Shown: piece after piece, positions 34,673 through 50,957 of the stretch
How positions within the stretch are numbered: position 1 is the first letter of the stretch
Layout of the letters: every line of letters begins with the position of its first letter
DNA from: Eubacterium sp.
GTDB lineage: Bacteria; Bacillota; Clostridia; Lachnospirales; Lachnospiraceae
Length of the DNA stretch: 64,000 bases
Direction of reading: 5' to 3'
NCBI GenBank assembly: GCA_017433825.1
Contig: JAFRGL010000005.1
Location: 58,797-122,796, forward strand
Program-made: the position numbers and the translations under genes
Notes under the pieces: model-generated
The model's input: only the letters and a program-made list of their open reading frames with translations
Database searches by the model: none
Told to the model about the DNA's origin: nothing

Positions 34673-35167
34673 ATGGATGACACAAGGATATTCCGGGTGA
34701 TTGCGAATTACCGGGAACTGATGAAGAAGAACAAAAAGAGTATCGAATACCTGCTGGAGATGCTGCATTCCGGCAGGCATGACGAGGGACTGGTGCGGCA
34801 GGCCACCTTCCGGCAGGGCACCGCGTCCGCAAAGACACAGCCCTCCGGGGTTGCGGACCTTTCCGATACCTTAAGCCGATACGAGAAGCTGAAGGAATCG
34901 GAGACGGAGCTGACGCTCAATATGCTGAACCGGCTTTTTGAAGAGCGGCAGGAAATGAGCCGCATCTATGTCTGTTTCCAGGTGCTGCCGGAGCCTTATA
35001 AAAGCGTGCTGTCCGGCATCTATGTTTCCGGCCGGACGGTGGCCGAGGTGGGGGATGAACTGCACCGATCCCGCAAAAGCATCGAGGAATACCGCAAAAA
35101 AGGGGCGGAACTTATCCGGAAGAACTATAACAGCGCCCTTTCCAACGAAGAGCTTCTGATTTCCTGA
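34673..35167 (+). CDS. small sigma-70 region-4-like HTH protein (ArpU/RinA/DUF1492-type phage late-gene-activator-like)
   Basis: 164 aa. C-terminal LPEPYKSVLSGIYVSGRTVAEVGDELHRSRKSIEEYRKKGAELI looks like sigma region 4. There is no region 2. Confidence 0.5.
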   Translation: MDDTRIFRVIANYRELMKKNKKSIEYLLEMLHSGRHDEGLVRQATFRQGTASAKTQPSGVADLSDTLSRYEKLKESETELTLNMLNRLFEERQEMSRIYVCFQVLPEPYKSVLSGIYVSGRTVAEVGDELHRSRKSIEEYRKKGAELIRKNYNSALSNEELLIS

Positions 35168-35500: not shown

Positions 35501-35701
35501 ATGGCAGCAGACGAAGAATTCAGGCTGACATGGGCAGCTGCACGGGTGAACAGAGGTTATACGCAGGATGAGGCCTGCAGGCTTATGGGGATTACAAAAC
35601 CGACACTGATCAACTGGGAGAAGGGGGCTACCGAACCGCGGTTTTCCCAGGCCCAGCGTCTTGCCAGACTATATAAAGTGTCTCTGGATCTCATAAAATG
35701 A
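35501..35701 (+). CDS. XRE-family (Cro/C1-type) HTH transcriptional regulator
   Basis: 66 aa. RGYTQDEACRLMGITKPTLINWEKGATEP is the HTH_3 pattern. Confidence 0.8.
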   Translation: MAADEEFRLTWAAARVNRGYTQDEACRLMGITKPTLINWEKGATEPRFSQAQRLARLYKVSLDLIK

Positions 35702-35755: not shown

Positions 35756-35786
35756 ATACAGCTCATTATGAGCTGTATTTTTCTTT
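35756..35786 (+). terminator. intrinsic terminator between the XRE gene and the Bsp-repeat gene
   Basis: ATACAGCTC-ATTAT-GAGCTGTAT followed by TTTTCTTT. It lies inside the 5' extension of track ORF 35768, supporting the downstream start at 35828. Confidence 0.6.
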
Positions 35787-35827
35787 CCAAACAGTCTGAT
35801 TCGGCTTTATGCCGGGAAAGAGGAAAT

Positions 35828-38566
35828 ATGAGAAAGACAGCAGGAATAAAAAAGACGGCGGCACTGATTCTCGCGGCGGTACTTGCACTGCCGGCGGGTA
35901 CGTTTGCGGTATCGGCTGATGAAGATACGCAGACCGAGAATGAGGCATCGTTTAAAACAGCCGCGCCGTCTGTTTTTGCCGAGGATGTTTCCGGCGATGA
36001 GAGCGCCTTCCGGCTGAAGCTTGACAACTACGGGGCGGATAACGCAGGCAGCCTTCGCGCCGGTGTCTGGAGTGATGAAAACGGCCAGGATGACCTGGTC
36101 TGGTACGGCATGTCTGAAGCGGAAGGCTCCTATACCTGCATGATAGAAATCTCGAACCACAGTTCTGCCGGACGGTACAGTGCTGATATCTGGGATTTTT
36201 CCGGATCTCCCTCTTACGTGGCAGGAACCTCCTTTACGGTGACCAGTATTCCCCGGCCTTCCTATGCACTGGAGGATGAGAACGCGGCGGCAGGCACCTT
36301 CCGGATAACGGTTTCCGGACTGAATACCCGAGCGGTTTCCCAGGTACGGATTCCCACCTGGTGCGCATCCGACCAGTCGGACATTGTGTGGTATACGGCA
36401 CAGCAGTCCGGCGGCACGTATTATGTGGATGCGGATATCGCATCCCATGCAAACCACAGGGGGAGATATACATCACATATTTACGTGTTTTACAATAACG
36501 GACAAACCGAGGTCTTAGGCGGCCTGTATGCGGACATGTCCGAACCGGAAAACAAGCCGGAATTTTCTTCGGAGGGCGTCACCGCCGAAGCGGACCCTGT
36601 TTCCGGTGAGTTCACGCTGACCGTGGCGGCGCCTTCCGCCACATACGGCATCGGACGGCTGCGGATAGCGGTCTGGACGGCTGCGGACGGCCAGGATGAC
36701 CTTATCTGGTACACGGCTGAGAAGAGCGCGGACGGCAGTTATGTGGTGAAAAGCAGTATTTCCGCCCACAACGATGAGGAAGGAAAATACAACTGCCATG
36801 CCTACATTACCGACACGAAAGGCAATACGGGCTTTTGCGGCGCGGCGGAGATGACCGTCACTCTGGAAGAGGAACAGGAGAGTTCCGAAAAGGGCTTCCG
36901 GCTTGAGGATGAGAACGCAGCGGCAGGCACCTTCCGGATAACGGTTTCCGGACTGAACACCCGCACGGTTTCCCAGGTGCGGATTCCCACCTGGTGCGCT
37001 TCCGACCAGTCGGATATCGTGTGGTATACGGCACAGCAGTCCGGCGGAACCTACTATGTGGACGTGGATATCGCCTCCCATGCAAACCACAGGGGAAGAT
37101 ATACATCCCATATTTACGTTTATTACAATAACGGCAAAACGGAAGTCTTAGGCGGCCTGTACGCGGACATGACCGAACCGGACAACAGGCCCGAGTTTTC
37201 TTCCGAAGGCGTTACCGCCGAAGCGGATCCGGTTTCCGGTGAGTTCATACTGACTGTGGCAGCACCTTCCGCCTCATTCGGAATAGAACGCCTGCGGATA
37301 GCGGTCTGGACGGCAGCAGACGGCCAGGATGACCTTATCTGGTATACGGCAGAAGAGACTGAAGACGGCAGTTATGTGGTAAACAGCAGCATTTCCGCCC
37401 ACAACGGGGAGGAAGGAAAATACAACTGCCATGCCTACATTACCGATAAGAAAGGCAATGCCGGCTTTTGCGGCGCAGCGGAAATGAACATTGTGCTGGA
37501 GGAGAACCCTGACGAAGTCTTCCTGCTGGAGGACGTAACAGAAGGCGGTCTGTCCCAGATAGATTACCGGATTGTGGTTCCCGCAAAGAATTCATTCAGG
37601 CAGCTGCATGATTTCAGGGCTGCGGTATGGTCCGTGGAAAACGGCCAGGATGACCTGGTATGGTACCCCCTGGCAAAGCAGGGCAATGCCGGCTATATCG
37701 GAACCTTCTCCACGGCGGATCATAAATCCGCAGGGCGGTACTGTGCGGATGTCTATGCTCTCAACAGCACGGGTTCCCATGTATTTATTCACAGCTTTTC
37801 CTTTGAAGTGGATGGTATATCCCCCTCTGTACTTGCTGCGGAATGTGATGAGAACGGCAATATTTCCGTGGCTGTTACCGGCCTGGACTGCCCCTCCGGC
37901 ATTACCCTGGTGCGGGCGGCCGTATGGTCGTCGGCCAACGGCCAGGATGATATTGAATGGCTCAAGCTGGAGCTTGATGAAGAAGGCGCCTATGCCGGAC
38001 AGACCTCCGTAACGAAGCACCGTTACAATACGGGAAACTATCTGATTCATGTGTATGCGGACAACGGCGCGGGCATACGCGGCTTTACCTGCGGTTCAGA
38101 GCTGGAGGCTTTCTTTACCTTTGATTCCGACTCCCTGGCCATGCAGGAAGCGGCCATGAAGCTGGACGAGATAGGCTGGGATCTCAGATCCGCATACAAC
38201 TGGGCTGTGGGCATCATCTACACCAGCAATCCGGGACTGCCCGAAGCGATACCGGAAGGCCGGTCACACCTTGAAACCTATGCCACCTACGGCTTTGAGC
38301 ACGGTGACGGCATCTGCTATGTTTACGGCGCGGTTATGACCTGCATGGCAAGGGCATTGGGCTATGATGCCTACTTTGTCGAAGGCCAGGTACGTTACAG
38401 GGACGGCAGCTTCGGCCCCCACGGCTGGTGTGAGATTGACATCGACGGCACCACCTACGTCTACGACGCGGAGTTCCAGCACAGTTATCCCGACCGGAAC
38501 GGCTTTGGATTTACCTACGGTACGTCCGGAACCTGGAAATACGCCAACTGGCATCGGGTGGAGTAA
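35828..38566 (+). CDS. secreted protein: signal peptide, 7 GBS-Bsp-like repeats, C-terminal transglutaminase-like (papain-fold Cys-His-Asp) domain
   Basis: Start MRKTAGIKKTAALILAAVLALPAGTFAVSADE. Seven repeats follow the pattern xVW(S/T)xxNGQDDLxWY...G.Y...I..H...G.Y..H.Y. The C-terminus carries GDGICYVYGAVM (Cys), GPHGWCEI (His) and YVYDAE (Asp). Confidence 0.8.
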   Translation: MRKTAGIKKTAALILAAVLALPAGTFAVSADEDTQTENEASFKTAAPSVFAEDVSGDESAFRLKLDNYGADNAGSLRAGVWSDENGQDDLVWYGMSEAEGSYTCMIEISNHSSAGRYSADIWDFSGSPSYVAGTSFTVTSIPRPSYALEDENAAAGTFRITVSGLNTRAVSQVRIPTWCASDQSDIVWYTAQQSGGTYYVDADIASHANHRGRYTSHIYVFYNNGQTEVLGGLYADMSEPENKPEFSSEGVTAEADPVSGEFTLTVAAPSATYGIGRLRIAVWTAADGQDDLIWYTAEKSADGSYVVKSSISAHNDEEGKYNCHAYITDTKGNTGFCGAAEMTVTLEEEQESSEKGFRLEDENAAAGTFRITVSGLNTRTVSQVRIPTWCASDQSDIVWYTAQQSGGTYYVDVDIASHANHRGRYTSHIYVYYNNGKTEVLGGLYADMTEPDNRPEFSSEGVTAEADPVSGEFILTVAAPSASFGIERLRIAVWTAADGQDDLIWYTAEETEDGSYVVNSSISAHNGEEGKYNCHAYITDKKGNAGFCGAAEMNIVLEENPDEVFLLEDVTEGGLSQIDYRIVVPAKNSFRQLHDFRAAVWSVENGQDDLVWYPLAKQGNAGYIGTFSTADHKSAGRYCADVYALNSTGSHVFIHSFSFEVDGISPSVLAAECDENGNISVAVTGLDCPSGITLVRAAVWSSANGQDDIEWLKLELDEEGAYAGQTSVTKHRYNTGNYLIHVYADNGAGIRGFTCGSELEAFFTFDSDSLAMQEAAMKLDEIGWDLRSAYNWAVGIIYTSNPGLPEAIPEGRSHLETYATYGFEHGDGICYVYGAVMTCMARALGYDAYFVEGQVRYRDGSFGPHGWCEIDIDGTTYVYDAEFQHSYPDRNGFGFTYGTSGTWKYANWHRVE
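36269..37534 (+). repeat. intragenic tandem duplication, 2 x 633 bp (211 codons, two Bsp-like repeats each)
   Basis: The copy starting at 36269 (CTGGAGGATGAGAACGCGGCGGCAGGCACCTTCCGG...) recurs at 36902 (CTTGAGGATGAGAACGCAGCGGCAGGCACCTTCCGG...). The proteins read RLEDENAAAGTFRITVSGLNTR(A/T)VSQVRIPTWCASDQSDIVWYTAQQSGGTYYVD... in both. DNA identity is high by eye, with scattered substitutions. Confidence 0.9.
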
Positions 38567-38599: not shown

Positions 38600-38631
38600 A
38601 CGGACGGCAGTAAGTTCTGCCGTCCGTTTTG
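38600..38631 (+). terminator. intrinsic terminator after the Bsp-repeat gene
   Basis: ACGGACGGCAG-TAAGTT-CTGCCGTCCGT followed by TTTT. Confidence 0.8.
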
Positions 38632-38683: not shown

Positions 38684-39199
38684 ATGAGCAAGAACAAACC
38701 AGTATGGAGGTTTCCGGCGATTATCCTGACTGCAGCGCTTATGGCGCCGGGCCTGGTGAACGTTTCCCGGGCAAATGCTTTTTTTGCCGATGCGGACAGC
38801 GCGGTAAACAACCTGGGCTTCGGCATCAACACCATTGTGCCGGAGGAGGAGTTTGAAGAACCGGAACCGGGACAGGAAACCTGCAAAAATCCAAAGGCTG
38901 TCAACACGGGAAGCGTTCCCTGCTATGTGAGGGCAAAGGTATTCCTGTCCGATTCCCGCATTGCGCTGGACTATGAGGATTATCTCAATACCGGTGCCTG
39001 GCGGAAGGAGGACGGATGGTATTATTATAACGGCATTCTTCAGCCGGGGGAGACAACCCCGGCTCTTTTTGACCGGATTTTACTGATGGAGGATATACCG
39101 GAAGAGGTGCAGGAGGCACAGCTGAACGTCGTTTTCGCCTCTGTACAGTCAGAAGGCTTTGATGACGCTGCCGGGGCTTTCGCGTCCCTGGCGCATTAA
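38684..39199 (+). CDS. TasA/CalY (camelysin, M73)-family protein with SipW-type signal peptide, paralog 1
   Basis: N-terminus ...LTAALMAPGLVNVSRANAFFADADSAVNNLGFG parallels the TasA-type A-x-A-(Y/F)F-x-D cleavage region. Body motifs KNPKAVNTGSVPCYVRAKV and DGWYYYNGILQPGETTPALF. Confidence 0.7.
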   Translation: MSKNKPVWRFPAIILTAALMAPGLVNVSRANAFFADADSAVNNLGFGINTIVPEEEFEEPEPGQETCKNPKAVNTGSVPCYVRAKVFLSDSRIALDYEDYLNTGAWRKEDGWYYYNGILQPGETTPALFDRILLMEDIPEEVQEAQLNVVFASVQSEGFDDAAGAFASLAH

Positions 39200-39278
39200 T
39201 TGGCAGTGAATTTCCCGGCCGGTCCGGTTCCGCCGGACCGCCTCAGTCATCCGTCTGTCTGGCCAGCAAGGAGAAAAA

Positions 39279-39965
39279 ATGACAAAATCAGGAAAAATGA
39301 AAACAGGCATCCTTATCTGCGCAGCAGCTGCAGCGCTTTGCGTGGGCAGCGCGGCTGCATATTTTACGGACAGTGATACCGCCGTAAATACCTTTACCAT
39401 CGGAAAGGTCGAGCTTGACCTGCAGGAACCCGGTTACGTTCCGGAAACCGATATTACCCCCGGTGAGGAGATACAGAAAGATCCGCAGATTAAAAACACC
39501 GGCGTGAACGACGAATATGTATTTCTGACCGTGACCATTCCCTATGCGAATATTACGGTGGCGGAAGCCGACGGCACCAAAGGCGCAAAAGCGGACACCG
39601 AACTTTTCACTTACACCGTAAACAGCGGCTGGACCGAGCTGGGCGCAGCCGAAAAGAACACTTCTGAAAAATTCTATACCCATACCTATGTTTACGGCAC
39701 CGCATCTGCCTGCACGGCACTGGCTGCCAATGCCGTGACCCCCGCTTTATTCAATACCGTGAAAATGGTAAACGCGGTGGAAGACGAGGGACTGGAGAAT
39801 ACCTCCGGTCAGATTACCGTGACCGCCTACGGCATCCAGACGTCCAATCTGGGTCTGGACGGCAGTGTGACCAGTCCTTCCGATATTCTGAATATCGTCA
39901 GAAAGCAGGCCCCCGCATCCACCAAGACAAATGAAGACGCAGTAACCGATATCGTCGGAAACTGA
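39279..39965 (+). CDS. TasA/CalY-family protein with SipW-type signal peptide, paralog 2 (probable major subunit)
   Basis: ...AAALCVGSAAAYFTDSDTAVNTFTIGKVELDLQEP..KDPQIKNTGVNDEYVFLTVTIPY is a textbook SipW-cognate signal plus camelysin-like core. AAGGAG RBS. Confidence 0.78.
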   Translation: MTKSGKMKTGILICAAAAALCVGSAAAYFTDSDTAVNTFTIGKVELDLQEPGYVPETDITPGEEIQKDPQIKNTGVNDEYVFLTVTIPYANITVAEADGTKGAKADTELFTYTVNSGWTELGAAEKNTSEKFYTHTYVYGTASACTALAANAVTPALFNTVKMVNAVEDEGLENTSGQITVTAYGIQTSNLGLDGSVTSPSDILNIVRKQAPASTKTNEDAVTDIVGN

Positions 39966-40055
39966 ACCAACACACTATTACATTTACCTGACAGACTTAA
40001 ATGATCCTGAGGCGGCCGGGCAGAGCCGGTCCGGCCTGATTAACATGGAGTGCAT

Positions 40056-40652
40056 ATGAAAAGAACAGTAATAAAAACCATAACGGCAGTACTGCTGGCC
40101 TGTCTGGCCTTCGCCGCGGTGAAGGGAAGGGCAATGGCGGACGAATGCGGTATCTGCGATATTGAACTACAGGAATACGAACTGTCCGAAGACGGGGAAG
40201 AGATTCCTTATGATGATCCGAAGGACAGGCTGCTTCCCTTTGACACAGTCAGCAAAAGGGTTTATGTCGTCAATCACGGAAGCCCGGTAACAGTCAGGGT
40301 AAAGCTTTCGGAAGAAGATGCCCCGGAGGGCTTTCTGGAGGGCCTGGAAGGCATGCCTGAAGGCTGGGTGCTTAAGGACGACGGCTGGTTTTACTATGAG
40401 CGGAAACTGGATACCGGCGAAAGGATTCCCGTTATGGACGGCTTCCGCCTGGGGGACCTGGACCAGGAGACCTGGGAGCTTCAGACCTTCCGGCTGGTAA
40501 TAACGGCGGAAGCGGTGCTGGAATGCCCGAAGAAGACGGGGCCCTCCACCGGTGACGGAACGGATATGCGGACCTGGACCTGCGGCATTGCCGCAGGCGT
40601 TTCGGGGCTGGCGGCTGCAGCCTTCCTGAAAAGGAGGACCGGCCATGCATAA
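40056..40652 (+). CDS. TasA-like-core protein with a C-terminal sortase-type sorting signal (paralog 3)
   Basis: Signal peptide MKRTVIKTITAVLLACLAFAAVKGRAMA. The core (RVYVVNHGSPVTVRVKL...DDGWFYYERKLDTGERIPVMDGF) is homologous to the C-terminal half of paralog 1. The tail is GPSTGD, a hydrophobic stretch (CGIAAGVSGLAAAAFL), then KRRTGHA. ATG at 40056 after GGAG. Confidence 0.55.
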   Translation: MKRTVIKTITAVLLACLAFAAVKGRAMADECGICDIELQEYELSEDGEEIPYDDPKDRLLPFDTVSKRVYVVNHGSPVTVRVKLSEEDAPEGFLEGLEGMPEGWVLKDDGWFYYERKLDTGERIPVMDGFRLGDLDQETWELQTFRLVITAEAVLECPKKTGPSTGDGTDMRTWTCGIAAGVSGLAAAAFLKRRTGHA

Positions 40653-41133
40653 AAGAAAGAAAGACAGAATCCTGAAAGGCATCCTTTTTGCCGGCTTTCT
40701 GGCAGTTTTGGCCCCGGCCTTCATCTTCCTTAAAGGATATGTCATCCTTTCCGGATCAATGGAGCCGGCTGTAGGCACCGGAAGCCTCTGCCTGGTCAAC
40801 AGGCTCATCCCCTATGACATGATCGAACCCGGGGATATCATTGCGTTTACCACATCCCTGTCCGGGACGGCGGTACACCGGGTGGCGGGTTTTGACGGGG
40901 AAGGGCTGATTACAAAAGGAGACGCGAACCGTATGGAAGACGGAGAACGCGTCGGAAGAGAAGCCTATCTGGGCAAGGCCGTACTGGCCATACCTTATCT
41001 GGGCAGAATCCTGAACGTGTTCGGCAATACCTTCGGCAGAATACTGCTGGCGGGCGTCTGCCTGTTCGCGGCAGGTTTGATGATACTGACAAGTCAATCC
41101 GGAAACAGGAGGAAAGGAGCGGCGGAAACATGA
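40645..41133 (+). CDS. sipW: signal peptidase I, SipW (archaeal/ER, S26B) type
   Basis: ILSGSMEP (Ser), AVHRV (His), ITKGDAN and a C-terminal TM segment. 162 aa. Overlaps the upstream stop by 8 nt and the downstream start (ATGA). Confidence 0.85.
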   Translation: MHKRKKDRILKGILFAGFLAVLAPAFIFLKGYVILSGSMEPAVGTGSLCLVNRLIPYDMIEPGDIIAFTTSLSGTAVHRVAGFDGEGLITKGDANRMEDGERVGREAYLGKAVLAIPYLGRILNVFGNTFGRILLAGVCLFAAGLMILTSQSGNRRKGAAET

Positions 41134-43679
41134 AAAACGGAAAACTGAAAAAAAGGCTGTCTGCCGCTGTGCTGGCAGCTTTACTGATCTTATCCTGCGG
41201 CGTTTATGCCGCGGAAACCAAATCCGGGGACGGACAGGAAGAATACCGTTCCGGAAGCACTGCAGAGGAGGAGATTTCTGACGTAAGCACTGCGGAGGAA
41301 GAACTTTCGGCGGGAAACTCTGCGAAAGAAGGAAACCCTGCAGGAAGCACTGCCGGAGAAACGGTTCCGGAAAACGTGCGGGACGCGGAATTTCATGAAG
41401 AAGGAGAAGCCGGGGAAGGGGCGGAAGGAAAACCTGAAGACAATCCGGCAGCAGGGACAGAGACTGTTCCGGAGCCGGAGGAGACACGGGGGGATTTCGC
41501 GGAGGAGCCGGAGGAGACACAGGAGGATTTCGCGGAGGAGCCGGCAGAAACCGGCACCGTCCGGTTTACCGTTACCTCTGCCACGCCGGCCTACAGCTAC
41601 GGGGAAGATGAATACTACTATACTTATGAGGGGCTGGGCTATGACTACGGCTGGCTGGGACATCATTTAAGTCCGGCAGGAGAACTGAACGGAAGCAGTG
41701 CATACTGCATTACACCGCAGCTTCCGGTTCCCGCTTTCGGACAGTATACGGCGGAGCTGACGGAGAAAGAAAATGACCTCTTTGTCAAGCTGCTGTACTA
41801 CGGCTGGCAGGGGCCGGGGGATATTACCGGGGACTATTTCATTTCGGGAAATGACCGGCATACCCTGACGCATCTGGCCCTGTCATACCTGTACAATTCC
41901 GAAAGCATATCTTTCGCCAATGACACGGGCGTCTCGCTGGCACAGCAGTTTACCCGGCGTGTACAGGAACTGCCGGATATTGAAGGCAAAGCGCTTATTG
42001 TCCGGGAAACCGGTACGGGCTTCGCGCTTATCAGGCTTACGGAAAGCCCGCAGAACGGCCTGCCGTCGGTGCCCGCGCCGGTGCTCCGGATGGCCGGACC
42101 CATCGGAAGCACCGTCCGGGTGGTTTCCGAAGCAGGGGCAGGCTATTATTACGATTACGTGGGATACGGTGACGGCAGCGGCAACGGAATAGACCGCTTT
42201 ATCTATCTGAACGGGGACGAAACCTACTGCGTTATGCCGCAAAGGCATCAGCCCGCCACCGGCAATTATCCGTCGTCCCAGACACAGAGAATCACCAATG
42301 ATCTCCTGGTAAACCTTTTGTATTTCGGCTATCACGGGCCGGGGGATATAACCAACAATCCCGCCTACATTCCTTCAAACACGCAGAATGCCCAGTGGAG
42401 CAGGCATACGCTTACCCACATTGCGCTGACGAAGGCCTACGAGGCCGTATACGGCGGCAGTTCCTGGAGCTACGGCGTCAGCAGTTCCGGCATAGCCAGG
42501 GTAAATCAGTTTATCGCGGAGGTACAGGCTAAAATCGATGCCGGAAAGGGTGTGAAGGGCTATGCGGTTTCCTTCAATGACGGCCTGACCTACAACGGCA
42601 ATCCAACCCAGACCACCGTAACCCTTATCAGCGCAGTCTACCCGACGGGAAGCGTTGAGCTGACAAAATCCTCCGCAAATCCCGGACTGACCGGAGGGGA
42701 CGGGCGTTATTCACTGGAAGGGGCGGTGTATAAGCTGTACAACTATGCCGAATACAGCGTTACTGCCGACACCCTGACGCTTTCCGTGCTGGGGTCGGAA
42801 AACCCGGTTTACCGGGCGGCTTTCTGGGATGTAACGGCAGGCGGTTCGCCGAAATGGCGCACCATGAGCTGGTCCGGCGGACGGTGGACGCTTGACATTG
42901 ATATTTCCGGCTGCGCCGAACTGGACAGGATAGCGGTTCATTTCTATGACGGTTCCGATTCCCGGTATCTGTGGGGCTGGAACAGTTTTATTAAAGATCC
43001 GGAAACATACGGGCAGACACAGGAAATCTATTCGGAGAAATATACCCTGACCACGGATGCGGAGGGAAAGGCAGGCCTTGCGTCTGCCGTAACCAATACC
43101 TACATTCTGAAGGAGGAGAGCCCCTCCCCGGGCTTTTTACTGGATGAAACGGAATACACGCTGCAGGTGCAGGGCAATACCGTGAATACGGTAAACGTGA
43201 CAGAAGAGCCGGTACCGGAGGAAGAACCGGAATGGACCAGGCTTACGCTGGTGAAGACTGTCTTCGCGGAGGAGTTCTGGGCAAGCCACGGGGATTCTCC
43301 CTTTACGGCAGAGGTGACCGGTACCACCGCGGACGGTGACACCATCACCCTGACCCACACCTTTGTCTTTACCCGGCAGATGATGGAAGAGGCCGGGCCG
43401 GAAGGGCCGGTTTCGCTGACATTTACCTGGGAGAAGCTTCCGCCAGGGGTCTACCGTGTCCGGGAATTTATCACGGACAACCGGTATAAGGGAACCGTAA
43501 CCGGACCGGACGGAGGTCCCTCCGGAACAATCCCCTCAACGGAATATTATCCTGCATACGCAGACGTGGATCTGACGGACAATCCGGAAGGGGAGACCGT
43601 ATATCTGACCAACCGGAAGAACAGCTATGACAGGCTGTCCCACATCACAAGCATTATCAATGAACTGAAAGGGCCTTGA
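41130..43679 (+). CDS. large secreted adhesin/pilin-like protein: acidic repeats, two tandem Cys/His modules, SpaA/Cna-B-like domains; no recognisable C-terminal anchor
   Basis: Signal peptide MKNGKLKKRLSAAVLAALLILSCGVYA. 33-bp acidic repeats (EPEETRGDFAE x2.3). Duplicated module with YC(I/V)(T/M)PQ ... LLY(Y/F)G(W/Y)(Q/H)GPGDIT ... RHTLTH(L/I)AL. Cna-B/SpaA-like strands (GSVELTKSS..., YILKEESPSPGFLLDETEYTLQV). Confidence 0.7.
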   Translation: MKNGKLKKRLSAAVLAALLILSCGVYAAETKSGDGQEEYRSGSTAEEEISDVSTAEEELSAGNSAKEGNPAGSTAGETVPENVRDAEFHEEGEAGEGAEGKPEDNPAAGTETVPEPEETRGDFAEEPEETQEDFAEEPAETGTVRFTVTSATPAYSYGEDEYYYTYEGLGYDYGWLGHHLSPAGELNGSSAYCITPQLPVPAFGQYTAELTEKENDLFVKLLYYGWQGPGDITGDYFISGNDRHTLTHLALSYLYNSESISFANDTGVSLAQQFTRRVQELPDIEGKALIVRETGTGFALIRLTESPQNGLPSVPAPVLRMAGPIGSTVRVVSEAGAGYYYDYVGYGDGSGNGIDRFIYLNGDETYCVMPQRHQPATGNYPSSQTQRITNDLLVNLLYFGYHGPGDITNNPAYIPSNTQNAQWSRHTLTHIALTKAYEAVYGGSSWSYGVSSSGIARVNQFIAEVQAKIDAGKGVKGYAVSFNDGLTYNGNPTQTTVTLISAVYPTGSVELTKSSANPGLTGGDGRYSLEGAVYKLYNYAEYSVTADTLTLSVLGSENPVYRAAFWDVTAGGSPKWRTMSWSGGRWTLDIDISGCAELDRIAVHFYDGSDSRYLWGWNSFIKDPETYGQTQEIYSEKYTLTTDAEGKAGLASAVTNTYILKEESPSPGFLLDETEYTLQVQGNTVNTVNVTEEPVPEEEPEWTRLTLVKTVFAEEFWASHGDSPFTAEVTGTTADGDTITLTHTFVFTRQMMEEAGPEGPVSLTFTWEKLPPGVYRVREFITDNRYKGTVTGPDGGPSGTIPSTEYYPAYADVDLTDNPEGETVYLTNRKNSYDRLSHITSIINELKGP

Positions 43680-46551: not shown

Positions 46552-48198
46552 ATGAAAAGGAAGCTGTTTCTTCTTTTCCTGATAATGCTTCTTCCGTTTG
46601 CCGCTGCCTGCAGCAGCAAAGAGGAGGAAAAAGATAATACGCCTTCATCCGAAGCGTCATCGGCATCTGAGGTTATTCCCGAAGGGGAATACCGCGGTTT
46701 TGTGGACGTCATACCGCCGGCAGCGGGCCTCCCCGTATCCTGGATGGATTCGGATGCTTTTTATGCCAAGCTGAACAATGACCAGCTGGTTTTCAAAAAA
46801 GCGGTCTGGACCGTCACGGATGAGAACGGCAGGACGAAGGAAATGAAGGATGACGACGTCTTTGTTCCCGGAAAAGTACTGGACGCGCGGGCTTACTTTT
46901 ACAATCCCGGCGTAACACCCAGAAAGCTTGACGTCCTTACGCCGCTTACCGGGGAATATTTCGTGGAGCTTCTGTCGACGGCGGAAGGGGACTGGTGCGT
47001 GCACTGGCGGTTCCCCGCCGATATGGAAATGCCTGAAGCGGTGCTTCTGCAGATTCCCGCGCCAAAGGCAGGCGGGGAAAATACCGAACAGAAGAACCTT
47101 GTGGCTGTCTGGCAGGGCGAACAGCTGTCAAACGTGTCCGCCTCCTGGAAGAAGGCGGAAGACAGGAATTACGATAAGGCACAGACCATGGCGGAAGGAG
47201 AAGCCTTCGGAAATACGGGCATTTACCAGACCACCTTTGCGGTGAAGGCGCCTGCGGACGCCTCTCTTTCCGGCGTATACTGCTGCGCTTCCTGCGGCTA
47301 TATCACGAGGCTTGACGACACCGAAAACGGCATCTGGAAAATCACCGTCCAGTTCGACATGGATAAAGCGCCTTTCGTGCAGAAAAGCCTGCCAAAAGCC
47401 ATCCTGGAAGAGCTGGAGAGCAATGTGCCCATCGCAGATATCCGGATTGACAATCCCAGGGTTACGAAAAAAGACGGGCCCTTTGCCGTTGAGACAAAAG
47501 TGGAATCCGGGACCGTGAAGAACGTACGCTGGTATCTGGGTCCGGACTGCACAGGCACTGAAATGACTGTAAACTCCTGGAAGTATTCCTGCGAAGGGTA
47601 TTCCGCCTGGTACCGTATCGAAATGAACATGACAGGCAGGCTGGTTGCCGCCGAAGAACTGAACGTATCGGTAACGGAAGGCAGAGTGTTCCGGGTGGAT
47701 CGGATTGACGGCAAGACCCTGGACGTGTTTATCAACTATTCCTACATCCATGAGCTGGAAAGGGACGAAAAGGAATCAGTACCGGCTTCCTGCGACCATG
47801 AAGGTACGGACGTGATGCACTGCGCCAACTGTTTTGCGGAAATCCGCCAGCCGGTGCCGGTGATTCCGCACGACTATATACAGACCGATTACAAGGCCCC
47901 TGACTGCACAAACGGCGGCTATGCCGCGGTGAAGTGCTCCCGCTGCGGATATTCCTATACGGTGAACTATCCGGCAAACGGCCACTCTTACAAATATGAA
48001 TCCGATGAATCCGGCCACCGGAAGGTCTGCAGCGTCTGCGGCGACGTGGCGGAAGAGGGCGCCCACCAGATGGTGCGCGACGGCGATACCGGCATCGAAA
48101 CCTGCACGGTCTGCGGCTACAGCATCCAGGGCGAACCGGACCCGAAGCCTACGGAAGAACCCGGCGGCGGTGAAGAGCCGGGAAGCGAGGAACCGTAA
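46552..48198 (+). CDS. hypothetical lipoprotein with a Cys-rich (4 x CxxC-type) C-terminal region and an acidic Pro/Glu tail
   Basis: Lipobox LLPFAAAC. C-terminal CDHEGTDVMHCANC, CTNGGYAAVKCSRCGY, HRKVCSVCG, ETCTVCGY. I recognise no family. Confidence 0.6.
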   Translation: MKRKLFLLFLIMLLPFAAACSSKEEEKDNTPSSEASSASEVIPEGEYRGFVDVIPPAAGLPVSWMDSDAFYAKLNNDQLVFKKAVWTVTDENGRTKEMKDDDVFVPGKVLDARAYFYNPGVTPRKLDVLTPLTGEYFVELLSTAEGDWCVHWRFPADMEMPEAVLLQIPAPKAGGENTEQKNLVAVWQGEQLSNVSASWKKAEDRNYDKAQTMAEGEAFGNTGIYQTTFAVKAPADASLSGVYCCASCGYITRLDDTENGIWKITVQFDMDKAPFVQKSLPKAILEELESNVPIADIRIDNPRVTKKDGPFAVETKVESGTVKNVRWYLGPDCTGTEMTVNSWKYSCEGYSAWYRIEMNMTGRLVAAEELNVSVTEGRVFRVDRIDGKTLDVFINYSYIHELERDEKESVPASCDHEGTDVMHCANCFAEIRQPVPVIPHDYIQTDYKAPDCTNGGYAAVKCSRCGYSYTVNYPANGHSYKYESDESGHRKVCSVCGDVAEEGAHQMVRDGDTGIETCTVCGYSIQGEPDPKPTEEPGGGEEPGSEEP

Positions 48199-49569
48199 AT
48201 GACACCGGAAGAAGAATACAGACACTTAAAGGAAAATGCGGCGGACAAGGTCATGCGCCTGGTCCAGGATCAGCTGGTTTTATATCTGCCGTACCTTAAC
48301 CGGGCCATCTTAAGGCTTCCGTATTTCCCCTGGTACCCGGAGGATAATGAAGAAGTGGTGATGGACGCCTGCGGCACCGACGGAAGAAGGGTAACGGCCG
48401 AACCGGACGAGGTGATCCGGCTTTACAAAACGGACCGGACAAGGCTTCTGCGCAGCTATCTGCACATGATGTTCCACTGCATTTTCTGCCATCCGTTCCA
48501 GTACGAAATGCTGAATATAAAGGCCTGGGATTTCTGCACCAACGCGGCCGTGGAAAATACGATACTGGACCTGAATATCGGCGAGCTGGCCCTGCCGGAT
48601 GATCAGGAACGAAGAAGATTCCTGGCAAAAGCAGCCGGCTATGTGAAGCCGCTTACGGCTGAAAAGCTGTACCATTATTATTACAAGAACCAGGACATAC
48701 GGGAAAATGATCTGGAATACGCGCCGCTTTTTGCCCTGGACTGCCACGAGCTGTGGCTTTCCGAGGACAAGATGGCGGGCAAGGACCGTTTCTCCAAAGA
48801 CGCACAGTTTGATTTCAGCATGCATGAAACGGAAGCCATGTGGCAGGACGTGTCCAACCGGATCCAGCTGGACGTAAAAGCCGTGGCCAGGAGGCAGGAG
48901 CTCCTGCCCGGTTCCGCCATCGACAACATCAAGGCGGTGTATAAGGAGAAGAGAAGCTATACCGATTTCCTGAAGAAATTCATTGCCTTAAAAGAAGAAA
49001 TCAAAATCAATCAGGATGAATTCGACTATATTTATTATACCTACGGCATGAAGCTGTATGGCAACATGCCGCTTATCGAGCCGCTGGAATATACCGACAG
49101 CAGTAAGATCCACGACCTGGTGATAGCCATCGATACCTCCGGCTCCTGCCAGGGCAGGGTGGTGAGAAGCTTTTTAAACAAAACCTACACCATCTTAAAG
49201 GACAGCAGCGTCTTCTTTTCGGATTTGAACGTGCACATCATGCAGTGCGACAGCGAGGTGCATTCCGATGTGAAGATAACCTCCCAGACCGAATTCGACG
49301 AATACATCATGAATCTGAAGGCGGAGGGCTTCGGCGGCACGGATTTCCGGCCGGTGTTTGAACGGATAGAAGAGCTTCAGAAAAGGCATGAATTTTCGAA
49401 TTTGAGGGGGTTGATTTACCTGACCGACGGGCTGGGCACTTTCCCGCAGGTGAAGCCGGATTACCCGGTAGCTTTTATTATTATTGAAGATGACAGGCAG
49501 AAGGCAAAGGTGCCTGCCTGGGCCATCCGGCTGGATACCACGCTGGAGGACCTGGAGAAAAGGAGATAA
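48199..49569 (+). CDS. vWA-domain protein with a DUF2201-type N-terminal putative-metallopeptidase domain (motif degenerate)
   Basis: N-terminal pattern TDGRRV...YLHMMFHCIFCH...AWDFCTNAAVEN matches the DUF2201_N layout, except that HExxH reads HMMFH. C-terminal MIDAS-like motifs VIAIDTSGSC and IYLTDGLGTFP. The ATG abuts the upstream TAA. Confidence 0.72.
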   Translation: MTPEEEYRHLKENAADKVMRLVQDQLVLYLPYLNRAILRLPYFPWYPEDNEEVVMDACGTDGRRVTAEPDEVIRLYKTDRTRLLRSYLHMMFHCIFCHPFQYEMLNIKAWDFCTNAAVENTILDLNIGELALPDDQERRRFLAKAAGYVKPLTAEKLYHYYYKNQDIRENDLEYAPLFALDCHELWLSEDKMAGKDRFSKDAQFDFSMHETEAMWQDVSNRIQLDVKAVARRQELLPGSAIDNIKAVYKEKRSYTDFLKKFIALKEEIKINQDEFDYIYYTYGMKLYGNMPLIEPLEYTDSSKIHDLVIAIDTSGSCQGRVVRSFLNKTYTILKDSSVFFSDLNVHIMQCDSEVHSDVKITSQTEFDEYIMNLKAEGFGGTDFRPVFERIEELQKRHEFSNLRGLIYLTDGLGTFPQVKPDYPVAFIIIEDDRQKAKVPAWAIRLDTTLEDLEKRR

Positions 49570-49571
49570 CA

Positions 49572-50957
49572 GTGAACATCAGAGAAGCAAAGGAACAGAT
49601 TAAACGGTCGGTAAGCATTTATCTGATGAAGGATGAGTGGGGCAATTACAGGATCCCCCTGTCCAAACAGCGGCCCATTTTCCTGTACGGCGCGCCGGGC
49701 ATCGGCAAAACCGCCATTATGGAACAGATTGCGGAAGAACTGGATATTTCCCTGGTGGCCTATTCCATGACCCACCATACCAGGCAGTCCGCCTTAGGCC
49801 TGCCGTTTATCGTGCACAAGGATTACCAGGGCCAGTCCTACGATATTTCCCGGTACACCTTAAGCGAGATCATTGCTTCCGTATATGAGAAAATGGAATC
49901 CTCCGGCAAGCAGGAGGGCATCCTCTTCCTGGACGAAATCAACTGCGTGTCGGAAACTCTCGGACCGTCCATGCTGCAGTTTCTGCAGTATAAAATCTTC
50001 GGCAACCACCAGGTGCCGGAAGGCTGGGTCATCGTAACCGCCGGAAACCCGCCGGAGTTCAACCGTTCGGTGCGGGAGTTCGACGTGGCCACCATGGACC
50101 GCCTGAAGGTGATGGTGGTGGAGCCCGAATATGACGCCTGGCGGTATTACGCCGTCCAGCGCAATATCCATAAGGCCATCCTGACCTTCCTGGACATCAA
50201 GAAAGACGATTTCTACGATATCCAGACCACCGTGGACGGCAAAACCTACGTGACGGCAAGGGGCTGGGAGGATTTGTCGGAGGCCATTTATCTGTATGAG
50301 GAAAAAGGCTATCCCGTGGATGAAACCCTGATTTCCCAGTATTTAAGGAACAACCGTATCGTGGGCGAGTTTGCCGCCTACTATGAGCTTTTTGCCAAGT
50401 ACAGGAACGACTACCACATCGCGGATATCCTGGCAGGAAATGCGCCTGCGGAGGTGGGTGAGCGGGCACGGGAAGCGGGCTTTGACGAGAAAATTACCGT
50501 AACCGGCCTTTTGCTTGAAGCCATCATCCCCTGGATGAACCGGAATATCTGGCTGCAGGATGATTTAAGGAAGAGGATGGCGCAGCTGAAGGAGAAAAAG
50601 GCGGCCATCGCCAAAGGCGGCACCGTGGATGAGAAGAACGCCTTCCTGCGCAGGAAGCAGATTTTTGACGACGACGTGCGCCTTATGAAGACGGAAGCGG
50701 CGGAAATCAGCGAAAAGCTGTCCAACATTTTCCGCTTTGTGGCTGAATATTTCGGCGAGGGCAATGAAATGCTGATCCTTATTACCGAGCTTACCGTCAA
50801 TTACGGAAGCGCAAGGTTCATCGCCGAAAAAGGCTGCGAGGAGTACTTTGCCTACAGCAAAAAATTCATGATGTATGACAGGAACAAGGAGCTTAAAAAG
50901 GAGCTTCAGAGGATAGAAGAGCTGGGCGAGGCAGCCCGGCCGGTGTTTGAGGTATGA
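49572..50957 (+). CDS. MoxR-like / AAA_5-type AAA+ ATPase
   Basis: Walker A YGAPGIGKT, Walker B ILFLDEINC, sensor region VIVTAGNPPE. GTG start 2 nt after the upstream stop, with an AAAAGGAG RBS. Confidence 0.8.
   Translation: MNIREAKEQIKRSVSIYLMKDEWGNYRIPLSKQRPIFLYGAPGIGKTAIMEQIAEELDISLVAYSMTHHTRQSALGLPFIVHKDYQGQSYDISRYTLSEIIASVYEKMESSGKQEGILFLDEINCVSETLGPSMLQFLQYKIFGNHQVPEGWVIVTAGNPPEFNRSVREFDVATMDRLKVMVVEPEYDAWRYYAVQRNIHKAILTFLDIKKDDFYDIQTTVDGKTYVTARGWEDLSEAIYLYEEKGYPVDETLISQYLRNNRIVGEFAAYYELFAKYRNDYHIADILAGNAPAEVGERAREAGFDEKITVTGLLLEAIIPWMNRNIWLQDDLRKRMAQLKEKKAAIAKGGTVDEKNAFLRRKQIFDDDVRLMKTEAAEISEKLSNIFRFVAEYFGEGNEMLILITELTVNYGSARFIAEKGCEEYFAYSKKFMMYDRNKELKKELQRIEELGEAARPVFEV

Follow-up and report, generated by a model that had tools for sequence, protein, structure and literature searches.

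How could a large secreted protein without a wall anchor become part of a surface fibre? The question is raised by a locus at 38684-43679 of a 64,000-nucleotide stretch of DNA from Eubacterium sp. of the Lachnospiraceae (contig JAFRGL010000005.1, positions 58,797 to 122,796; hereafter the window), in which genes for three small proteins (P1, P2 and P3) and a SipW-type signal peptidase precede the gene for a big secreted protein (BIG). The locus probably encodes a SipW-dependent surface fibre of the TasA/BsaA type, with several subunit types, a wall-anchored base and a large adhesin of its own. BIG ends in a C-terminal module (CTM) of ~150 residues, and what appears to be new is a fixed Lachnospiraceae cassette of five or more genes together with this uncatalogued CTM, found on interchangeable adhesins. 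The five + strand open reading frames (ORFs) are as follows.

38684-39199, + strand: P1, ORF of 171 amino acids (aa)
39279-39965, + strand: P2, ORF of 228 aa
40056-40652, + strand: P3, 198 aa, in an ORF that opens at GTG 40050
40645-41133, + strand: SipW, ORF of 162 aa
41130-43679, + strand: BIG, ORF of 849 aa, secreted

An earlier note on this DNA, made from the letters alone, had described the five genes in this order with overlapping ends, and the ORF coordinates bear it out: P3 and SipW share 8 nt (40645-40652), and SipW and BIG share 4 nt (41130-41133). The note took the overlaps to imply stoichiometric co-expression, which goes too far, as such start/stop overlaps suggest translational coupling only. 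For P3, the ATG at 40056, with GGAG in front of it, is more likely the start than the GTG at 40050.

The same genes recur together in other species. A scan of GTDB with one genome per species, for which a 10-sequence CTM alignment was the only query, gave 106 confirmed stretches, and 80 loci were kept. The query pattern misses BIG itself, so the window's own species lies outside the 80 loci. By title, almost all of these belong to Lachnospiraceae or relatives, with Blautia, Fusicatenibacter, Dorea, Mediterraneibacter, Marvinbryantia, Lacrimispora, Jingyaoa and Cuneatibacter among the genera. In a profile search, the CTM gene was accompanied by sipW and by P1-like, P2-like and P3-like genes on the same strand, within 4.8-8.6 kb, at 70 of the 80 loci; nine of the ten loci without a full cassette are cut by contig ends. 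The recurrence of the cassette is far above chance and its linkage to the CTM is near absolute. The architecture singled out by the earlier note is thus a real conserved unit.

The CTM proteins of the 70 complete cassettes are about 590-1390 aa long and are encoded by the last gene in all but three of them (67/70). The commonest order is sipW-P2-P1-P3-CTM (46 loci). The window order, P1-P2-P3-sipW-CTM, occurs once in the 80-locus set and also on L006 and L007, two contigs reached independently through P2 homologues; on these and on a third such contig, L009, the big gene after sipW ends in a CTM. P3-like and CTM genes are adjacent, or have only sipW between them, in 58 of the 70 complete cassettes. 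The window's own five-gene set is present in five further metagenome contigs of the same species, with protein identities of 93-99%.

One contig of a Blautia sp. metagenome-assembled genome (MAG) carries the sole CTM protein that, with over 6 kb of sequence ahead of it, has no sipW or TasA-like genes nearby (L087, 6599-10477). The same genome holds a complete cassette on another contig (L072), and the lone protein may serve the same fibre as a spare adhesin. A variant arrangement occurs in two Clostridiales MAGs (L010, 8146-13420, and L011), where a 603-623-aa adhesin of the TED_2/TEDa_beta/SpaA/TQ kind has its own APQTGD signal. Its gene overlaps the start of a P2-like gene, which is followed by P3-like, sipW, second P2-like and P1-like genes; the large downstream proteins end in leucine-rich-repeat-like regions and have no CTM.

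The relationship of the small proteins to known fibre subunits is clearest for P2. Among the models used for the TasA/CalY/BsaA superfamily (PF12389, TIGR04090 and NF046066), P2 passes PF12389 (Peptidase_M73/camelysin; 39.2 bits, cut-off 22.5, E 8.9e-10), and it also passes the SipW-type signal peptide model TIGR04088 (26 bits, cut-off 19). It stays under the cut-offs of TIGR04090 (BsaA; 40 vs 60 bits) and of the TasA equivalog (28 vs 450), and is therefore a member of the TasA/CalY/BsaA family rather than an orthologue of TasA or BsaA. Its 81 homologues bear source names of SipW-dependent or CalY proteins. P1 and P3 alone pass no curated model in a Pfam/NCBIfam scan and give only sub-threshold BsaA-family matches, that of P1 to TIGR04090 reaching 7e-9; P1 shows an A-F-F-x-D motif by eye and matches no TIGR04088-type model.

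Custom class profiles were built from 70-88 homologues with all window sequences left out. On these, P1 matches the P1 class at 8e-40, the P2 class at 4e-19 and the P3 class at 2e-19; P2 matches the P2 class at 3e-59, the P1 class at 5e-16 and the P3 class at 2e-14; and P3 matches the P3 class at 2.5e-26 (residues 11-156) and the P1 class at 3e-11. By these matches the three proteins are mutually homologous TasA/BsaA-family paralogues, P1 and P3 being tied to the family only via the custom profiles (1e-11 to 1e-19), and the earlier note's three TasA-like paralogues stand. BLASTP with P3 matches the N-terminal halves of P3-like proteins at 1e-15 to 1e-18, and a word-index homology search returned same-species proteins only, both for P3 and for BIG.

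Both P1 and P2 have a candidate donor strand after the signal peptide.

38780-38824, + strand: P1, donor-strand-like FFADADSAVN42NLGFG, following the signal peptide
39360-39404, + strand: P2, donor strand Y28FTDSDTAVN37TFTIG, following a SipW-type signal peptide

BsaA assembles by donor-strand exchange, and mutagenesis has shown that its N35-E56-K74 triad locks the subunits together by an intermolecular isopeptide bond (PMC11580942). The P2 residues N37, E50 and K67 do not vary across an alignment of 69 sequences, and in a set of 88 they are conserved to at least 90%; in P1, N42, E55 and K68 are at least 90% conserved in 70 sequences. These Asn/Glu/Lys sets resemble the BsaA triad, the match being one of residue order and spacing only, with BsaA unaligned. 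An AlphaFold2 (AF2) model of P2, computed from the 69-sequence alignment, has a predicted local distance difference test score (pLDDT) of 88 with the N-terminal strand disordered. In a Foldseek search with this model, the TasA fibre 8aur_A ranks 5th (E 1.9e-3, probability 0.98, 237 columns, template modelling (TM) score 0.28), so that the fold evidence may be called supportive, not decisive. A profile search of PDB sequences with the P2 family gave nothing useful.

The signal peptidase is dedicated to the locus, as the earlier note had it. It scores above the cut-off of TIGR02228, the ER/archaeal-type signal peptidase I model (69.8 bits, cut-off 51.85, E 2.3e-19), and matches the window-free sipW profile at 3e-36. 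Because it lies under the cut-off of the Bacillus SipW equivalog (56.6, cut-off 190), it counts as a SipW-type enzyme rather than an orthologue. Its motifs are:

in 40645-41133, + strand: SGSMEP with Ser38, VHRV with His78, and KGDAN from residue 91

What could hold such a fibre on the cell? P3 has an ordinary-looking signal peptide and, at its other end, a three-part sorting signal in which CPKKTG-PSTGD is followed by 21 mainly hydrophobic residues and KRRTGHA.

40542-40649, + strand: P3 C-terminal sorting signal, PSTGD at residues 163-167, hydrophobic stretch at 171-191, KRRTGHA tail

Such a signal, of the form [PV]x[KQRS]TG[DL] plus a hydrophobic stretch and a basic tail, is found in 70 of 73 P3-like proteins (for example PVKTGD, APKTGL and SPKTGD), and is thus a conserved trait of the P3 gene class. 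The earlier note's reading of P3 as the sorting-signal paralogue is upheld, and its suggestion of a basal-anchor role is plausible because of this conservation. A peptide with the sequence SPSTG is cleaved by Clostridioides difficile SrtB in vitro (PMC4155245); the P3 motif, GPSTG, shares the PSTG core with it and is not identical.

The window P3 is unusual for its class. P3-like proteins have 360-500 aa and two TasA-like domains, and the window P3 has one; it is without the second domain and without the N-terminal FSDxxxVxNHIxxGD strand of nearly all homologues. It retains E40 and K67, which are conserved columns of the P3 family, and lacks the donor-strand Asn that most members carry. An argument from donor and acceptor 'valence', which took the donor strand and second domain of P3 to have been lost together, was dropped because the second domain of the P3-like proteins has no conserved Glu/Lys. 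One metagenome variant of 176 aa (P0003) is a P3 with a further internal deletion, and the P3 gene is therefore variable within the species.

BIG, in turn, has the layout of an adhesin up to its last 150 residues.

residues 1-27, + strand: BIG Sec signal peptide
residues 28-150, + strand: BIG acidic low-complexity linker, 31 Glu in 123 residues
41631-42440, + strand: two tandem TED_2 domains (PF20610, 1.9e-30, 106 bits vs cut-off 27, in two stretches)
43026-43205 (residues 633-692), + strand: SpaA (prealbumin-like) stalk domain (PF17802, 4.3e-8)
43221-43676 (residues 698-849), + strand: CTM (window-free profile, 2.5e-20 over 698-846)
residues 833-849, + strand: CTM terminal tail Y833DRLSHITSIIN844ELKGP, with invariant N844

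The best Pfam stretch for the first TED_2 copy is residues 168-284, with Cys193 and T247-H248; the second copy lies around residues 360-437, with Cys367 and T429-H430. An internal repeat relates residues 186-255 to 360-437 (47% identity, E 2.7e-19). Across BIG and 13 relatives (P0085-P0203), the TED_2 members share YC[LIV]xP...P..G.Y and an invariant T-H within (L/I)THxxA. The family Cys is kept in all of them, and THxxA occupies the place of the thioester Gln in the classical TQxA(I/V)W, making the thioester of this subfamily putative; another residue may be the partner. With TED_2 heads on a SpaA stalk, BIG looks like a fibrillar adhesin. It has no C-terminal sorting signal, and no YPKN pilin motif was seen on reading its sequence. 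Seven of the 13 TED_2 relatives end in sorting signals of the xPxTG type, and BIG ends in the CTM instead. The earlier note had called BIG a large SpaA/Cna-B-type protein without an anchor, and the PF17802 match and missing sorting signal agree.

The CTM, a module with a beta-rich core, stands in the place of the usual LPXTG-type signal. A HMMER library search with BIG residues 150-849 gave 471 matches, from which about 20 representative proteins whose best match is the C-terminal part of BIG were taken as the CTM set. In all but two of these (P0137 and P0161) the match reaches to within a few residues of the protein end, and the heads they carry bear no relation to one another, some being classical TED or TED_2, some VWA with a DxSxS motif and some of unknown type. 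Eight columns are invariant in an alignment of 25 modules (K709, G721, F725, F747, E779, R785, N828 and N844), and the consensus of the tail around N844 is SH(T/N)xxVxNxI. The 80 GTDB CTM proteins likewise combine SpaA/Cna_B stalks with variable heads, and none has a sorting-signal pattern in its last 42 residues; in nearly all of them the module forms the C-terminus. In 57 of them the tail Asn could be located, the protein ending 2-26 residues beyond it.

No Pfam, NCBIfam or PDB family reaches threshold for the CTM, to which SpaA and DUF5979 give weak matches. We do not call it a SpaA domain because hhalign against six SpaA repeats gives a probability of only 0.5%. A 'CnaB-like triad' of K709, E779 and N828 is no more than a pattern. 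When Asn sites were ranked against donor-strand matrices, the tail Asn came top in 10-15 of 76 CTM proteins, the chance expectation being ~1.5. The resemblance of CTM tails to donor strands may thus be called modest. N844 itself sits in a context of hydrophobic-x-N-x-hydrophobic, like V33-x-N35-x-F37 of BsaA.

How the parts might work together can be outlined from the behaviour of the family and, for P3 and BIG, from their own sequences. P1, P2 and P3 would be exported by Sec and processed by SipW. P2 would be the major subunit, its strand 28-42 inserting into the next subunit by donor-strand exchange, and N37 would probably lock the joint with E50 and K67 by an intermolecular isopeptide bond, as N35, E56 and K74 do in BsaA; we infer a strand-exchanged, probably covalently locked fibre because the conserved residues match the BsaA triad pattern. 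P1, with its similar set of residues, would play a minor or adaptor part. The last donor strand would be taken up by P3, which keeps the putative acceptor residues E40 and K67 and would form the base, fixed to peptidoglycan by a sortase encoded elsewhere. BIG, having no TasA-like body, could only donate a strand: its CTM tail would plug the free acceptor groove of the distal subunit through N844, in the manner of a tag and its catcher, which would make BIG the tip adhesin. The pointers to this last step are indirect, namely the CTM in the place of a sorting signal, its near absolute linkage to the cassette and, as weak evidence, the modest likeness of the tails to donor strands. That the CTM joins BIG to the fibre is a reading we hold tentatively, as one that could quite easily be wrong. 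More doubtful still is the full picture, in which gut Lachnospiraceae would use a third route to Gram-positive pili, combining strand exchange and a self-catalysed isopeptide lock with anchoring by a sortase-signal paralogue and with interchangeable CTM-plugged adhesins tagged by a terminal Asn strand.

Several observations weigh against a wall-anchored fibre with BIG at its tip. In vitro, C. difficile SrtB leaves NVQTG, which resembles the PVKTG type, uncleaved (PMC4155245), and PVKTGD, the commonest motif among the relatives, is unproven as a sortase substrate. An insensitive search (a TLxTC scan of the window and phmmer with Staphylococcus aureus SrtA) turned up no sortase gene, either in the 64-kb window or next to the 80 related cassettes. 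Most P3 homologues carry a donor strand, so a terminal acceptor may hold for this species only. The Foldseek match between P2 and TasA is weak at its TM score of 0.28, and cohesin and integrin beta-sandwiches score alike. BIG's own tail ranks 11th-35th of 36 Asn sites against the donor-strand matrices; the second invariant Asn of the CTM could sit in an intramolecular bond; a single-sequence AF2 model of BIG 697-849 has a pLDDT of 53 and is unusable; and the poor hhalign score places the module in no SpaA family. In Clostridium perfringens strain 13, finally, BsaB is not covalently joined to the BsaA ladders and BsaA oligomers behave as membrane-anchored, not wall-anchored (PMC11580942).

The locus might instead be a matrix operon of the bsa type, in which P2 builds extracellular fibres of a biofilm matrix, P3 and perhaps P1 modulate or tether them, and BIG, like BsaC, is an independent secreted matrix or adhesin protein that is merely co-expressed, its CTM a specialised stalk or folding domain linked to the cassette by co-regulation or by a shared need for SipW or other export. 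In strain 13 the deletion of bsaB or bsaC does no more than weaken pellicles, and BsaA still polymerises in the absence of their products, even in E. coli (PMC7395162). BsaC is recovered as a free 70-kDa protein, secreted as a monomer in dependence on type IV pilus proteins (PMC11580942). The weak SpaA and DUF5979 matches of the CTM core and the weak donor-strand resemblance of BIG's tail fit as well. Co-expression alone sits poorly, however, with a CTM that replaces the sorting signal on an otherwise typical wall-anchored adhesin architecture, with a linkage (70/80) from which only one locus with enough upstream sequence departs, and with the conserved sorting signal of P3, which favours a cell-attached over a shed structure; we regard this explanation as unlikely, if worth keeping in view. 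Quite improbable is a socket-and-plug scheme in which the groove of a sortase-anchored P3 takes the tail of BIG and displays the adhesin directly on the wall, P1 and P2 forming a separate fibre or extending from the P3 donor strand where P3 has one. It would suit the acceptor-only P3 and potentially donor-only BIG of the window, and the closeness of P3 and BIG genes in 58 of 70 complete cassettes; it offers no clear gain over a direct sorting signal on BIG, such as many TED_2 relatives have, and gives no account of why P1 and P2 co-occur so strictly. The names given to these proteins hint at yet another identity, since Pfam calls the family Peptidase_M73 and two homologues carry the JGI name 'predicted ribosomally synthesized peptide with SipW-like signal peptide'. 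It is scarcely credible that P1-P3 should be M73 metalloproteases of the camelysin type or ribosomal peptides with SipW-like leaders: the M73 name probably goes back to CalY having been mistaken for a peptidase (PMC11580942), no HExxH was seen on reading P1, P2 and P3, and these are beta-rich domains of 170-230 aa, not short peptides. A SipW-dependent fibre with a wall-anchored base and its own adhesin is the reading we prefer.

How much of such a system has been described before? The earlier note knew of none with this composition, which is too strong in view of the C. perfringens bsa operon and of what a preprint says of BsaA/TasA operons. Strain 13 has sipW-bsaA-bsaB-bsaC followed by regulators; its bsaB and bsaC mutants form fragile pellicles, and BsaA polymerises without BsaB and BsaC (PMC7395162). 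In most other C. perfringens strains the order is sipW-bsaA-bsaB(LPXTG)-bsaB'-bsaC, adjoined by a gene for a sortase, and BsaC is a 70-kDa VWA protein (PMC11580942). The same preprint, of 2024-25, reports that genes of the BsaA/TasA family often share operons with genes for LPxTG, fibronectin, SpaA, signal-peptidase and sortase proteins, and heteropolymers formed by donor-strand exchange have already been raised for BsaA/TasA paralogues (PMC11580942). By these descriptions of gene content, the bsa operon shares with the window a dedicated SipW, several TasA-family paralogues, one of them with a signal of the sortase type, and a large accessory protein that is secreted and has an adhesion-type domain; the Asn/Glu/Lys pattern of P1 and P2 recalls the BsaA triad. 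It differs in gene order (P1-P2-P3-sipW-BIG in the window); in the window no adjacent sortase gene was found and the operon has no two-component system, BIG has two TED_2 domains, SpaA and the CTM where BsaC has VWA, and sequence identity is too low for the BsaA models (40 vs 60 bits for TIGR04090). The novelty claim holds only in part. The fixed cassette and the CTM do appear new; a full-text literature search found no description of either the Lachnospiraceae cassette or the CTM.

The tapA-sipW-tasA operon of B. subtilis and sipW-tasA/calY of B. cereus likewise encode SipW-processed subunits of the same superfamily. According to two papers, TasA fibres form by donor-strand exchange, and TapA supplies the starting strand and ties the fibre to the cell (PMC9715654, PMC10151520). 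Unlike what is proposed here, TasA fibres are non-covalent and have no N-E-K triad (PMC11580942); these systems contain neither a paralogue with a sortase signal nor a large adhesin, and TapA is unrelated to BIG. The earlier note had called fibres of SipW systems non-covalent in general, which is outdated for the BsaA branch with its intermolecular isopeptide bonds (PMC11580942).

With sortase pili of the SpaA/RrgB type and with thioester adhesins, the locus shares the head-plus-stalk layout of BIG, and the P3 sorting signal parallels those of basal pilins. The note's further suggestion of a hybrid between SipW fibres and sortase pili does not hold in the strict sense: the insensitive search found no pilus sortase, no YPKN pilin motif was seen, and BIG has no sorting signal. 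Here TasA-fold subunits would polymerise by strand exchange, in place of the sortase transpeptidation of pili. Archaeal threads (Saci_0406/0405) and chaperone-usher pili are also strand-complemented filaments with extra covalent isopeptide links (PMC9715654), and their special end subunit, Saci_0405, which can donate but not accept a strand, corresponds in its logic to a BIG that only donates. In fold and lineage, however, these systems have no relation to the locus, their secretion and assembly machinery is different, and they have no sortase-type anchor.

Around the operon, the window has the following features.

34673-35167, + strand: 164-aa protein with sigma-70 region 4 matches only
35501-35701, + strand: 66-aa XRE-type helix-turn-helix protein
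35768-38566, + strand: 932-aa secreted protein with seven GBS_Bsp-like repeats (1.3e-142) and a C-terminal transglutaminase-core domain
~38600-38627, no strand: GC-rich hairpin between the 932-aa gene and P1 (11-bp stem, 8 GC pairs)
46552-50957, + strand: trio of a 548-aa Cys-rich protein (lipoprotein-like signal …AAACSS, many CxxC pairs), a DUF2201 protein and an AAA (MoxR-like) ATPase

The hairpin is a probable transcript boundary, with a terminator role suggested by its sequence, and since it follows the 932-aa gene the operon probably begins anew at P1. A second terminator-like hairpin, within P1 (39042-39064), was rejected as being at chance level. In GC content the operon does not depart from its flanks. 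The 932-aa protein, which the hairpin thus parts from the operon, contains long near-identical internal duplications (FRLEDENAAAGTFRITVSGLNTR..., twice) and is conserved in same-species contigs only. The trio is also kept in same-species contigs and appears unrelated to the fibre operon. The sigma-region and XRE-type genes of the window lie 3-4 kb upstream of the operon. Just upstream of related cassettes are a sigma/DUF4367 pair (L009), a 475-aa sigma-domain protein (L012), a LexA-like S24 protein (L006) and an Rrf2 protein (L007). Given these differing upstream regulators, regulation may be lineage-specific.

Beside several of the cassettes on L006-L009 lie tyrosine integrases, serine recombinases or resolvases, an SSB gene or a Phage_lysozyme2 protein, which hints that some cassette copies may ride on integrative elements. 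The idea of a mobile element has little support overall: the flanks in the window show no such genes and look chromosomal, a plasmid collection held no match for the CTM and none for P2, and among 2.9 million viral contigs a single one matched.

Among the commensals of the human gut, Blautia, Dorea, Fusicatenibacter, Mediterraneibacter and their relatives rank with the most abundant. To our knowledge, little is understood of how these bacteria attach to mucus, to food particles or to each other. If the CTM is indeed a self-ligating tag for TasA-fold subunits, it would represent a new assembly principle for Gram-positive surface fibres and could provide natural tag/catcher pairs for protein engineering. 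The cassette would also assign roles to the accessory genes bsaB and bsaC of C. perfringens. For the gut Lachnospiraceae, a cassette with variable adhesin heads is a concrete candidate for an attachment organelle.

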